This document shows positions 7,866 through 12,349 of a stretch of 64,000 bases of DNA, in pieces; the first letter of the stretch is position 1, and each line of letters begins with the position of its first letter. The notes below the pieces were generated by a model. The model was not told where the DNA came from, did not search any database, and saw only the letters and a list, made by a program, of their open reading frames with translations. The position numbers were made by a program, and so were the translations under genes. Origin of the DNA: Escherichia coli (GTDB taxonomy: Bacteria; Pseudomonadota; Gammaproteobacteria; Enterobacterales; Enterobacteriaceae); NCBI RefSeq assembly GCF_013315695.1, contig NZ_CP054353.1; one strand, 5' to 3'.

Positions 7866-8270
7866 ATGGATCAGGTCGTTGTTTTTCAAAAGATGTTTGA
7901 GCAAGTGAGAAAAGAGCAAAACTTCTCCTGGTTTTATTCAGAATTAAAACATCACCGTATTGCACATTACATTTATTATCTAGCTACGGATAACATCAGA
8001 ATTATTACTCACGATGACACGGTTTTGTTATTAAGAGGAACCAGGAACCTGTTAAAAGTTAGTACGACCAAGAACCCTGCTAAAATAAAAGAGGCCGCAT
8101 TGCTTCATATTTGCGGAAAATCTACATTTCGGGAATACTGTTCAACACTGGCAGACGCGGGCGTTTTCCGGTGGGTTACTGATGTTAATCATAACAAACG
8201 CAGTTACTACGCCATTGATAATACGCTTTTATATATTGAAGATGTAGAAAACAATAAACCATTAATCTAG
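7866..8270 (+). CDS. ycgX: YcgX, DUF1398-like protein
   Basis: 134-aa ORF MDQVVVFQKMFEQVRKEQNF... matches recalled YcgX. Confidence 0.8.
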   Translation: MDQVVVFQKMFEQVRKEQNFSWFYSELKHHRIAHYIYYLATDNIRIITHDDTVLLLRGTRNLLKVSTTKNPAKIKEAALLHICGKSTFREYCSTLADAGVFRWVTDVNHNKRSYYAIDNTLLYIEDVENNKPLI

Positions 8271-8481
8271 CTAAAGTTGGATGCTTAAAAAATGCTTCAT
8301 AATTCAGTAAGGCATTAGCATAATGGAAATAAAAGTGCAGAGACTATTCATATGGATGAGTAATACTATCTTTTTATTGCCACCCATAAATAATCACCAG
8401 ATCAATACTATCAACTTGATATTTGAAATGTGATCACTTGACTTTTGATACGTTATTTTATAGCGGTTAACATATTTATAA

Positions 8482-8530
8482 AAAACAATGGGCGTGCCAT
8501 ACGCCCGTTTCAATACTTAACGCACATGTG
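8482..8530. repeat. Hairpin-containing ~50-bp repeat, copy A (GGGCGTGCCATACGCCCG stem-loop followed by TTTCAATACTTAAC), homologous to the icd terminator region
   Basis: About 85% identical to 9343-9395 by eye; possible ycgX terminator. Confidence 0.6.
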
Positions 8531-8974
8531 TTTTGGTTTAGTCATCATCCGGTTATATGTATTTTAGCCAGGAATGGGTTAAACCATTCCTATATAACTA
8601 AAAAATTGAAACCTTATTCTCATGTCATGCTTATATTCGTCATTATCGTTATATAAAAAGGCCAACCATAATGTTTAGCAAATTGGCACAAAGTAGTATA
8701 AAGGCTATGTTTTAATTACAGGATGTTCAGTCATTTGAATGTATAACATTTTAGCTAAACAAATCTAAAACGAAGTGAATAATTTAATGTTTTCACTAAA
8801 TCTCATTTTGTTTAATATCTATTGAGATTTCTTGCTTTAAATTTTGTTTTATATAAACAATGGTTTTAATTTTTAATTAATTTGTTTTTTGAGGGGGTAA
8901 TATACTCATATGCAAAATCAAGAAATAAAAATCCTAATGAACCATATTAAATACCGTGGGATAAGACATAACAA

Positions 8975-9298
8975 ATGAAGTGGATAGTAATTGACACGGT
9001 AATTCAACCTACATGCGGTATATCTTTTTCAGCCATATGGGGTGATATGAAAATGATCATCTGGTATCAATCCACTATATTTCTTCCTCCTGGCAGGATA
9101 TTTACACCGGTTAAGTCTGGTATTATCCTTAAGGATAAAGAATATCCTATTACTATTTATAACATCGCACCATTCAACAAGGATTTATGGAGTTTACTCA
9201 AAAGCAGTCAAGAGTGTCCTCCAGGAGAAAGCAAAATAACAAATAAATGTTTGCATAATAGTTGCATTATAAAAATATGCCCATATGGGCTCAAGTAA
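8975..9298 (+). CDS. iraM: Anti-adaptor protein IraM (RssB inhibitor, stabilises RpoS; PhoP-regulated)
   Basis: 107-aa [26 protein letters not shown]... matches recalled IraM/YcgW. Confidence 0.9.
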
Positions 9299-9342
9299 TG
9301 GGCTTCATATAAATATTCTCGACATGCTATTAATAATATCCA

Positions 9343-9395
9343 CATAAATAAAACAACGGGCGTGTTATACGCCCGTTTCAATATTTAACACATGT
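9343..9395. terminator. Hairpin, repeat copy B; probable bidirectional intrinsic terminator shared by iraM and icd
   Basis: GGGCGTGTTATACGCCCG stem-loop between the iraM stop (9298) and the icd stop (9401), flanked by T/A-rich runs. Confidence 0.6.
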
Positions 9396-9400
9396 AGAGA

Positions 9401-10651
9401 TTACATGTTCTTGATGATTGCATCACCAAACTCTGAACATTTCAGCAGTTTAGCGCCTTCCATCAGACGTTCGAAGTCATAGGTTACGGTCTTGGCATTG
9501 ATTGCGCCTTCCATACCTTTAACAATCAAGTCTGCGGCTTCAGTCCAGCCCATATGGCGTAACATCATCTCAGCGGAGAGAATAATAGAGCCTGGGTTTA
9601 CTTTGTCCTGACCGGCATATTTCGGCGCAGTACCGTGGGTGGCTTCAAACAGGGCGCATTCGTCACCGATGTTTGCGCCAGGGGCGATACCGATACCGCC
9701 AACCTGCGCTGCCAGGGCGTCAGAAATGTAGTCACCGTTCAGGTTCATACAGGCGATAACATCATATTCAGCCGGACGCAGCAGGATCTGTTGCAGGAAT
9801 GCATCAGCAATCACGTCTTTAATGACGATCTCTTTGCCGGTGTTCGGGTTTTTAACTTTCAGCCACGGGCCGCCGTCGATCAGTTCACCGCCAAACTCTT
9901 CACGCGCCAGCTGGTAGCCCCAGTCTTTAAACGCGCCTTCGGTGAACTTCATGATGTTGCCTTTGTGCACCAGGGTCACAGAGTCACGATCGTTAGCAAT
10001 TGCGTATTCGATCGCTGCACGAACCAGACGTTTGGTGCCTTCTTCAGAACACGGCTTAATACCGATACCGCAATGTTCCGGGAAGCGAATTTTCTTCACG
10101 CCCATCTCTTCACGCAGGAATTTAATCACTTTCTCAGCGTCGGCAGAGTCTGCTTTCCATTCGATACCCGCATAAATGTCTTCCGAGTTTTCACGGAAGA
10201 TAACCATATCGGTCAGTTCAGGGTGTTTAACCGGGCTTGGAGTGCCCTGATAGTAACGTACCGGACGCAGGCAGATGTAGAGATCCAGTTCCTGGCGCAG
10301 AGCAACGTTGAGAGAGCGAATACCGCCACCAACCGGAGTGGTCAGCGGGCCTTTGATGGCAACGCGATATTCACGAATCAGATCAAGGGTTTCAGCAGGT
10401 AGCCAGACATCCTGACCATAAACCTGTGTGGATTTTTCACCGGTGTAAATTTCCATCCAGGAGATTTTACGCTCGCCTTTATAGGCTTTCTCGACTGCAG
10501 CGTCGACCACTTTCAGCATGGCTGGGGTTACATCTACACCGATTCCATCACCTTCAATGTAAGGGATAATCGGATTTTCAGGAACGTTGAGTTTGCCGTT
10601 TTGCAGGGTGATCTTCTTGCCTTGTGCCGGAACAACTACTTTACTTTCCAT
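9401..10651 (-). CDS. icd: Isocitrate dehydrogenase (NADP)
   Basis: 416-aa [41 protein letters not shown]...; full length, not interrupted by prophage. Confidence 0.97.
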
Positions 10652-10822
10652 TCACCTCTCCTTCGAGCGCTACTGGTTTGCTCGTCTGCCACCACGTTGC
10701 ATATGCGTTTGCGTCCTGCGATACGGATGCGTTAGAGCAATTTTTTGTTAATGATTTGTAATTGGCTTGTCAATACTACCCTATTGTTTGCCGTCATGAA
10801 AGATGCGCGTTATTAGGCTATA
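10652..10822. promoter_or_regulatory. Divergent icd / original rluE promoter region
   Basis: 171-bp region between the icd start and the K-12-like rluE start codon at 10823. Confidence 0.5.
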
Positions 10823-10897
10823 ATGCGGCAATTCATAATCTCTGAAAATACCATGCAAAAAACTTCTTTTAGACCAAAGACAGTATTTTTCTGACCT
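10823..10897 (+). pseudogene. rluE: Remnant of the original rluE 5' end (17 K-12-like codons MRQFIISENTMQKTSFR, then out-of-context PKTVFF*)
   Basis: Read directly: ATGCGGCAATTCATAATCTCTGAAAATACCATGCAAAAAACTTCTTTTAGA; homology to recalled K-12 RluE N-terminus ends at 10873. Confidence 0.7.
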
Positions 10898-11112
10898 TCA
10901 AATAAGGTATTAAATATCAATAATTTATATCAGATTTTAAGCAATAAAAAAAACCACCAGAGATAACTAACAAGGTGCTATTTGGTCAAAATTTGACATT
11001 ACTCGATTCAGCGACTATCTCACTTTGAGCACTATTGGGAAAATTATCAAAAGTCATAGTTGAAGCGACAAGCAACGAGTAAATTATGGCATCCCCCCTT
11101 TTTGAGGTTCAC

Positions 11113-11199
11113 ATGAAACGCTTTGCACTGATAGCTGTGAAACTCGTTGCCTTTACTGGTTCTGCATCTGCTGCAACCGAAGAAATCAACTTCAAGTAA
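11113..11199 (+). CDS. Small ORF (28 aa) with signal-peptide-like N-terminus, inside the inserted segment
   Basis: MKRFALIAVKLVAFTGSASAATEEINFK*; GAGGT Shine-Dalgarno 5 nt upstream of the ATG. Confidence 0.35.
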   Translation: MKRFALIAVKLVAFTGSASAATEEINFK

Positions 11200-11232
11200 C
11201 AGAAACACTATATAACAATGGAGTGTTGACAA

Positions 11233-11682
11233 ATGGATACTACCGAAGAACGCAATGGAACATATTTCTACAGAGGACACCCGAACCTGTCCAAAATAGA
11301 ACTACTCAACGTCATATTCCTTGAAGAATTCTGTAAGGAATTGGGGATTGATTCGGTATCAGGTGCAGCAATCTTATCTGGTCAACCGTGGCTGGGTACA
11401 AGAGCGAAGCCGCAAGGGGCAACCCTGGGAACAAGTGTTGTCTCAAAGTATGCGCGTATACTGATGAGAGATGCACGCATGCCTTTTGGTATTTCTGTTC
11501 ATACACCAGTGGGTGTAAGGATGCAGAAATCTAATAAGCTTGCTGCAATTATCGCTCGTTGGGTCCCGTGGATTGGTTGGGCTTCACTGTCGATGAGTCT
11601 TTACAGGGTTTCGACTCGTACCCAGGAAAAATACAATCTGATTGCCAAACCTCAAGACCGTATTAAGTGGACTTCCTTCTAA
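11233..11682 (+). CDS. Hypothetical basic protein (149 aa), first gene of an inserted two-gene cassette; candidate toxin or effector
   Basis: Track ORF; GGAGTG upstream; net charge about +9 by residue count; no signal peptide or TM segment; not recognised. Confidence 0.6.
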   Translation: MDTTEERNGTYFYRGHPNLSKIELLNVIFLEEFCKELGIDSVSGAAILSGQPWLGTRAKPQGATLGTSVVSKYARILMRDARMPFGISVHTPVGVRMQKSNKLAAIIARWVPWIGWASLSMSLYRVSTRTQEKYNLIAKPQDRIKWTSF

Positions 11683-12017
11683 TGGCGACAACAATCACAG
11701 ACGAAGTTTTAGCACTGTTCCGTGATGAGATTCCAGGTTATCAGGATGACCACGGGAAGGAAATTCCGTTAGAACTGGACTCTGATTTGTTCGACTATCC
11801 ACGAGATGATTTAGAGGACGCTATACGGAAATACAAAGAGAGGTTTGGGATTAACCTGGATAATCTGGACTGGTCTTTGTACCTTCCATGGGAGTCTGCA
11901 CCATTGCTTCAACGATGGTTCAAGCTCAAGCGGGAAGAGGTAGAAACAACACGTTTACCGTTAACTGTACGGATGTTTGCAGAATCAGCAGAAGCGGGAA
12001 AATGGCTGTATCAGTAG
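11682..12017 (+). CDS. Hypothetical acidic protein (111 aa), second gene of the cassette; candidate immunity protein or antitoxin
   Basis: ATG overlaps the upstream stop (TAATG at 11680-11684); net charge about -10 (24 D/E versus 14 K/R); an in-frame ATG at 11667 is an alternative start. Confidence 0.6.
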   Translation: MATTITDEVLALFRDEIPGYQDDHGKEIPLELDSDLFDYPRDDLEDAIRKYKERFGINLDNLDWSLYLPWESAPLLQRWFKLKREEVETTRLPLTVRMFAESAEAGKWLYQ

Positions 12018-12036
12018 AATAAAAAAGAAGGCTGCG

Positions 12037-12099
12037 ATGCCCCTCTTATTACTGCTGATGATGGTAGTGGTAAAGCATCATCCTAAACTTGAACAGTGA
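12037..12099 (+). CDS. Tiny hydrophobic ORF (20 aa, MPLLLLLMMVVVKHHPKLEQ), speculative
   Basis: ATG preceded by GAAGG at appropriate spacing; located 20 bp after the cassette stop. Confidence 0.2.
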   Translation: MPLLLLLMMVVVKHHPKLEQ

Positions 12100-12349
12100 A
12101 GTGCTGTCACCCATCAGTAATACAGAAACACTATTTTTCATACCAGTATTTATTCAATTCATCAATGTAAAATGTGTTCATTGGGCCATATTTATCACCA
12201 TGCAGCCACACAACCGCTGCTCACTAACCCAGGTATTGATGAAACCGCGCTGAAGAGCCTGAACCCTGAACCTCTAACGAGTACCTTAAAAGTCCAATGC
12301 AATCCGACACTGTGCTACCCTCTGCGTAAAGCTCTATTTGGAATTTACC

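Follow-up and report, generated by a model that had tools for sequence, protein, structure and literature searches.

Direct repeats around iraM at the icd 3' end of Escherichia coli are probably stacked attachment-site scars

The stretch of Escherichia coli DNA analyzed here, referred to as the window, is 64,000 nucleotides long (contig NZ_CP054353.1) and includes, on the plus strand, the genes bluF, bluR, ycgX, ymgL, ymgK and iraM, followed by icd on the minus strand and then by rluE. Two direct repeats, designated copy A and copy B, enclose ymgK and iraM and no other gene. The features that bear on the origin of this arrangement are as follows:

7866 to 8270, plus strand: ycgX (DUF1398), identified as an ORF and by annotation (PHROG 413, E 1e-41), outside the repeats
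8323 to 8433, plus strand: ymgL, a small ORF of 36 aa, annotated in related genomes, whose 3' end adjoins the arm relic
8431 to 8472, minus strand: putative relic of a decayed e14-type arm (P' arm), recognized by alignment to e14-type arms and containing three degenerate TTATCAAAA-like repeats
8477 to 8524 (profile match 8472-8534), minus strand: copy A, a probable displaced and decaying icd spacer and terminator module
8525 to 8974, plus strand: cassette interior, AT-rich and non-coding, including ymgK (8671-8715); presumed iraM promoter region
8975 to 9298, plus strand: iraM, RssB anti-adaptor (PmrD-like, PF11183), the putative cargo gene
9345 to 9392 (profile match 9342-9404), minus strand: copy B, a functional-looking icd intrinsic terminator module, 8 nt past the icd stop
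9401 to 10651, minus strand: icd, the last ~160-165 nt of which (9401 to ~9565) is the part carried by integrating elements as a substitute 3' end

In a repeat search of the window the two copies were recovered as a 48-nt direct-repeat pair (8477-8524 and 9345-9392) with a spacing of 868 nt, identical at 41 of 48 positions (85%), and the similarity covers 53 nt once one 2-nt indel is allowed. These results confirm an earlier note on this DNA, made from the sequence alone, which had reported hairpin-containing repeats of ~50 bp and ~85% identity in the same orientation around iraM; its limits were right to within a few bases and the sequences it quoted were correct, as was its placement of copy B against the icd 3' end, given that copy B ends 8 nt from the icd stop codon. 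Local alignment of the two intergenic regions gave a score of 36, compared with 13.9 +/- 2.0 for shuffled sequences (maximum 26, n = 2000). Each copy has a 9-bp G+C-rich stem and resembles an intrinsic terminator on the minus strand (the sense of icd) only. Within the window, the homology between the copies comprises the hairpin together with ~20 nt of spacer and, on the side of the T-run, ~10 nt; it ends within the spacer, and none was found into the icd coding sequence. Both a mismatch scan and an nhmmer profile identified only two copies of the unit in the 64 kb, and an Rfam scan returned sub-threshold chance matches only. A REP/BIME-like interspersed repeat family was considered and rejected, as many dispersed copies would be required of it and there were only two in 64 kb and no Rfam family above threshold. 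Among the sub-threshold matches was one to the sRNA family tpke11, over copy B at 9327-9396 on the minus strand (22.3 bits versus a gathering score of 43, E 0.15), which most likely reflects only the terminator hairpin.

Two further observations concern the surroundings of icd. An insertion of ~1.5 kb is present between icd and rluE (10652-12337), with ORFs at 11233-11682 and 11667-12017 on the plus strand; its genes belong to the STM2901 family (NF045926, PHROG 21993) and to DUF1493 (PHROG 20802), and it was found in only 373 of 5426 E. coli genomes, the icd-rluE gap in most strains being ~170 bp. Downstream of icd, IS200C and IS1A are annotated in the intergenic region of other E. coli (NZ_CP086623.1 and NZ_CP010152.1), and this region is thus also an IS target.

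The same sequence unit is carried by mobile elements that integrate at icd. Approximately 28 Escherichia (lambda-like) phages, including phage 21, have 93-97% identity to the window from 9600 to 9330 (queried in the icd sense), over a span that extends from ~160 nt upstream of the icd stop codon through the spacer and hairpin to the T-run. This homology starts at query position 37-42 and ends at window position ~9348, which is the outer edge of the direct repeat; in the lysogen MS 21-1, identity to the window stops at 9559, and the attachment core of icd-integrating elements lies near 9559-9565. The order annotated in phage 21 (OL657228) is an icd' pseudogene, a terminator, three attP arm subsites (P1P2P3) and int. 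The icd 3' end that e14 contributes in K-12 precedes a diverged hairpin belonging to e14 itself and then repeated TTATCAAAA motifs; the displaced icdC is then followed by copy B, with copy A further out, past iraM, and as such K-12 has three modules. A module with 21-type or e14-type arms also adjoins icd in O157:H7, E. albertii, two Citrobacter genomes and one MAG, and the hairpins of phage 21, O157, E. albertii and the Citrobacter elements are identical to that of copy B. Because phages and e14-type elements carry this series of icd', spacer, hairpin and T-run, the repeat unit is, judged by sequence, recognizable as the putative far portion of an attachment-site module, one that elements targeting icd bring with them and duplicate on integration. 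When such an element integrates at icd, its own copy lands beside icd and the previous copy is pushed to the far end in the same orientation. For e14 in K-12, the resulting icd/icdC duplication is that of Hill et al. (1989), as summarized in PMC6379469 and bioRxiv 10.64898/2026.06.14.732165.

One contig in this material, DYWT01000019.1 (5.2 kb, from a MAG labelled Sporosarcina psychrophila), has the module and an e14-type arm behind an icd 3' end of E. coli type, which is 100% identical in amino acids over 88 residues. The icd and module in this Firmicute MAG are almost certainly the result of contamination or mis-binning.

Alignment places the flank past the T-run of copy A (~8431-8472, icd-sense strand) opposite e14-type arms, with an equal offset from the hairpin in both. 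The score of this flank against the Citrobacter e14-like arms was 17-19, a level reached by none of 2000 shuffles (8.2 +/- 1.4, maximum 16), and against the K-12 e14 arm it was 14-16, which was reached by 2-6 of 2000 shuffles. Two controls, the copy A flank against the phage 21 arm and the copy B flank against either arm type, gave background scores. No homology was found past the arm between ycgX-ymgL and the interior of e14-like elements. We assign copy A with its outer flank as a putative decayed e14-type attL, and hence it would date from an integration before the one that brought iraM; the armless flank of copy B is as expected if its arm was deleted. ycgX, a phage-family gene, is possibly a leftover of the older e14-type layer, and ymgL had no PHROG match.

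Among the features by which an attL/attR pair is recognized, the locus has same-orientation direct repeats around foreign DNA beside the target gene, arm-type repeats beside the module at copy A (as a sequence match), and a natural empty site with a single copy and identical flanks. The repeat matches the icd 3' segment carried by the elements in its spacer, hairpin and T-run, and the icd' coding part is missing beside the window copy A. No integrase, excisionase or other recognizable phage DNA was found between the repeats, where ymgK and iraM are the only genes; with no element genes in this interval, the locus can only be the relic of an element and not the element itself.

The earlier note had proposed a search for an icd 3'-end remnant in copy A. 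In the window, comparison at both the DNA and protein levels revealed no icd coding remnant beside copy A, while one was identified in a second haplotype, which we reached via an IraM relative of 74% identity and which occurs in named cryptic Escherichia species as well as in ~19 complete genomes of E. coli. Haplotype 2 is filled and has copy A at the same place. From its copy A the similarity extends ungapped across the spacer and the icd stop codon to ATCAAGAATATG, corresponding to the last four icd codons, and the repeat in this haplotype is at least 75 nt long. The remnant is only ~13 nt, and its alignment has 23 of 30 positions matching the O157 allele, a result reached by 2 of 1000 shuffles. 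Beside the icd' remnant is a decayed IS3-family fragment, which is plausibly the agent that trimmed the displaced icd fragment. The 270 nt specific to haplotype 2 were considered as phage DNA and rejected, as they had no phage genome match and correspond to the IS3-like fragment. Haplotype 2 is ~20-25% diverged and differs from the window only from inside ycgX onward, where the recombination breakpoint between the two is located: identity to the window is 82-88% in the ycgX 3' half, 52-71% around ymgL, 74% in the cassette interior and 80% in iraM.

In R32_14_1F (NZ_CP074749.1), haplotype 2 lies in the same slot within an island of ~6.5 kb, whose order is ycgX, copy A, a ymgB/AriR-like gene, an iraM variant, trkG, an IS5 fragment, a 455-aa hypothetical protein, an e14-type arm, a module and icd. 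The 455-aa protein had no homolog in the e14-like loci compared. As the e14-type arm beside icd in this island could derive from a later, independent integration, it was not used to tie iraM to an e14-type element.

The gene between the repeats has relatives in phages. IraM is assigned to PF11183 (PmrD-like) and matches PHROG 4407 (E 4.5e-51); its family is small and was found in Escherichia only. All other family members examined (62-74% identity) are encoded by reverse-oriented genes in lambdoid late regions, in a slot between Q or stx2AB and nanS-p or a holin gene, and this setting holds in phage genomes, IMG/VR contigs and the chromosomes of E. coli and E. albertii. At the DNA level, the chromosomal iraM is homologous to the phage copies in its coding sequence only, and the cassette interior (8525-8974) had no match to any phage genome. 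The phage homologs, which were always beside nanS-p, do not share the hairpins that flank iraM here, and none is within 10 kb of icd' or int; given their late-region position, never near icd' or int, at least two large deletions must be assumed. By these homologies IraM is classed as a phage-family protein and would be foreign cargo between the repeats, and iraM is most likely leftover prophage cargo. Both iraM and iraL have been treated as horizontally acquired, CFT073 being without iraM and having IraL on an island (PMC4045071).

We also noted a short match between iraM and icd: positions 9087-9114 (iraM sense) and 10436-10463 (antisense of icd) are identical at 24 of 28 nt (CTCCTGGCAGGATATTTACACCGGTTAA versus CTCCTGGATGGAAATTTACACCGGTGAA), in different reading frames. 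The score of this match was reached by 2 of 1000 shuffles, and since it was found in a scan of many repeat pairs, it is probably due to chance.

The cassette (8525-9344) was present, with uniform size, in 3871 of 5426 complete E. coli genomes, and a precise single-copy empty junction was present in 1074 (~20%), including the type strain DSM 30083, MS20673 and Eco-15. The empty junction consists of the copy A outer flank, one module and icd'. At the empty sites the single module is wholly of copy-B type; this was considered as a sign of an ancestral empty site and rejected, as such a module would also result from a crossover within the ~15 identical nt at the left end. An empty-site strain had the window-type flank at 93-100% identity. 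A neighbor-joining tree was built from the shared flank with haplotype 2 as its root; the two strains with empty sites in it were monophyletic in 200 of 200 bootstraps and nested among filled strains in 159 of 200. With the filled haplotype 2 as root placing the empty sites within the filled strains, the empty sites most likely arose by deletion between copies A and B, a conclusion for which there is moderate support. As a correction to the earlier note, iraM is not uniformly present, the precise empty site in ~20% of complete genomes having most likely been produced by deletion.

Species-representative genomes were scanned with the module for native outgroup sites. The scan returned four matches (E. 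albertii, two Citrobacter and one probably contaminated MAG), all of them prophage-borne beside icd, with no native site from another Escherichia species, and these matches give no direct polarity. At the empty site of Eco-15, the spacer of the module is of the subtype GTTAAAAACGGTAACGGG, as in the Citrobacter e14-like elements and not the usual E. coli subtype, which suggests module swapping between host and elements across genera.

The two copies differ in the state of their hairpins. The stem of copy B showed no variation across 35 loci, and on the icd-sense strand, where it has 9 bp (6 of them G-C pairs) and the tail GTTTTATTTA, its folding energy is -16 to -22 kcal/mol; the same hairpin is also kept in phage 21-type and Citrobacter e14-like elements, whereas that of K-12 e14 is diverged. 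In contrast, six sites segregate within the 23-nt hairpin of copy A, whose stem departs from that of copy B by substitution in 28 of 33 loci, and on the minus strand this copy folds at only -8 to -11.5 kcal/mol in 27 of 33; in the K-12 copy A, both sides of one base pair are changed, resulting in a mismatch. The terminator pattern of copy A in the window fits the minus strand, yet no minus-strand gene ends there. Copy B is predicted to be the icd intrinsic terminator, and copy A looks like a decaying relic, which may nevertheless weakly terminate plus-strand ycgX-ymgL transcripts. The proposal in the earlier note that the repeats now serve as terminators thus has support for copy B only.

Three independent substitutions in the copy A stem (8487-8509), namely those of the window (column 49), of a 14-locus allele (column 53) and of a single-locus allele (column 64), are all C-to-T on the plus strand. 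Such changes keep G-U pairing in the plus-strand RNA, whereas the minus strand acquires A-C mismatches; three agreeing cases out of three do not reach significance, but the pattern hints at residual selection for a plus-strand hairpin.

Taken together, the repeats are probably two generations of the icd attachment-site module, left as stacked scars around iraM. We infer the following order of events. An e14-like element would have integrated first, with copy A and its arm as the attL scar and ymgL and ycgX perhaps as remains. A second element at icd would then have displaced the first module and brought iraM, and its decay would have left the ~0.8-kb ymgK-iraM cassette, with the displaced icd fragment trimmed and the IS3 fragment lying there in haplotype 2. 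In some strains a third element would have displaced copy B together with icdC, this element being e14 in K-12, a 21-like prophage in O157 and the sitABCD prophage in MS 21-1. In the lineage that now has the single-copy empty site, recombination between copies A and B would have deleted the cassette. This reading upholds the suggestion in the earlier note of an old integration at the icd 3' end, to which the repeat as a segment of icd-targeting elements, the icd remnant in haplotype 2 and the phage-family membership of IraM all conform; the same note's notion of a target-site-like duplication does not hold in the transposon sense, the copies being instead successive copies of the attachment-site module, with copy A from an earlier integration. 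The points against stacked scars are that there is no phage DNA inside, that the homology to phage iraM is coding-only, that the window has no icd remnant and that there is no native outgroup site.

The main rival, which we consider unlikely, is that the cassette was inserted in one step at an ancestral empty site, a small circular DNA with iraM and its own terminator copy having recombined with the icd terminator in a Campbell-type homologous or unknown site-specific event, and the empty sites of B2-type strains being ancestral. Such an insertion would account for the exactness of the empty sites (copy A left flank, one module, icd) and for a cassette that is uniform in size across 3871 genomes and without phage remnants, and it would also fit the wholly copy-B type of the single module, except that this does not discriminate, given that a crossover in the leftmost ~15 identical nt yields the same module. 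It is more difficult to reconcile with the ~20-25% diverged haplotype being filled as well, with copy A at the same place, while the empty sites share the window-type flank (93-100%) and form one clade nested among filled strains (159 of 200 bootstraps), and it leaves the icd stop codon and four codons beside the haplotype 2 copy A unexplained. A quite improbable reading is that the ymgK-iraM cassette is a still excisable unit with the two modules as its recombination sites, the branch of RpoS stabilization in Mg2+ starvation being lost with it at appreciable frequency and regained via a circular intermediate; on this view, copy A would be retained to insulate against or terminate plus-strand read-through from ycgX-ymgL, a role with which the three C-to-T stem changes, as they preserve G-U pairing on that strand, would agree.

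The idea that a transposon carrying iraM duplicated ~48 bp of target at the icd terminator has in its favor that direct repeats in the same orientation lie directly around a foreign gene, and that IS200C and IS1A do insert in this intergenic region in other strains. However, known target duplications (2-14 bp) are much shorter than a repeat of 48-53 nt (75 nt or more in haplotype 2), and the identity of the copies is no more than 85%. Inside the repeat boundaries neither terminal inverted repeats nor a transposase ORF are present, and the repeat unit coincides with the module of integrase-type elements; a transposon origin is thus highly improbable and effectively excluded. Least probable of all, and likewise effectively excluded, is that the two hairpins are independent, generic terminators whose similarity is convergent or due to chance, as might be supposed from both being G+C-rich stem-loops with T-runs, like any intrinsic terminator. 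The earlier note had stated that its own reading would fail if the similarity were confined to a generic terminator hairpin, but the similarity goes beyond the stem into the loop, the spacer and the T-run side and is 11 sd above shuffles; moreover, there are only two copies in 64 kb, and the flanks have attachment-site features (the e14-type arm and the icd' remnant).

Stacked attachment-site scars would give iraM, whose product regulates the general stress sigma factor and whose occurrence is restricted by lineage, a definite origin as prophage cargo stranded between two module generations. They would also explain why iraM is absent, at a precise junction, from roughly one complete E. coli genome in five, namely in B2-type strains, of which the species type strain is one. 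The icd attachment site would then keep a readable, layered record of integrations, with three module copies in K-12. For annotation, it would follow that iraM should be counted neither as an e14 gene nor among the core genes, and that a working terminator should not be taken for granted at copy A. Attachment-site duplication, prophage decay and repeat-mediated deletion are textbook mechanisms, and as such the result is of use for the origin and patchy distribution of iraM and would not surprise a specialist. The older scar at copy A seems not to have been described previously: in the literature on iraM with icd and e14, and with icdC, we found no discussion of this locus, and in that on IraL and the e14 icd/icdC duplication no description of a copy A relic.

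The locus resembles several known systems in part. As with the lambdoid accessory genes ("morons") of the IraM/IraL family (PHROG 4407), an example of which is the iraM-like gene between stx2B and nanS-p, chromosomal iraM is a small stand-alone gene with its own presumed promoter region that is horizontally distributed within Escherichia, and it belongs to the same protein family at 62-74% identity. Unlike those genes, with which it shares homology in the coding sequence only, it sits at an attachment-site scar and not in a late operon. Compared with the attP region of phage 21, the icd', spacer, hairpin and T-run are 93-97% identical and the repeat has the same boundary at the end of the T-run, whereas neither window copy is followed by phage 21-type CCCCAAAA arm repeats and phage 21 has no iraM near its attP.

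The nearest parallel in arrangement is with attL and attR of e14 in K-12, where the element enters the icd 3' end, supplies a substitute 3' end and terminator and leaves the original as a far-end direct repeat, and where recombination between the copies deletes the intervening DNA; the outer flank of copy A, in addition, matches the e14-type arm. In contrast to e14, copy A has lost the 165-nt icd fragment (13 nt survive, in haplotype 2 only), and no integrase or element genes are left at the iraM locus, where only a 0.8-kb cassette is enclosed. The copy A scar also forms a layer distinct from, and older than, the e14/icdC pair annotated in K-12, where that pair is located to the icd side of copy B. 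A comparable layering is seen in stacked islands at tRNA-gene attachment sites, where each integration duplicates the 3' end of the gene (DLP12 at argU, for instance) and successive integrations at one attB leave direct repeats of the target 3' segment between foreign layers. The placement of DLP12 at argU as an example of integration at a tRNA-gene attachment site follows PMC6379469. At icd, unlike at the tRNA genes, the target is a protein-coding gene together with its terminator, and the older layers are down to one or two genes.
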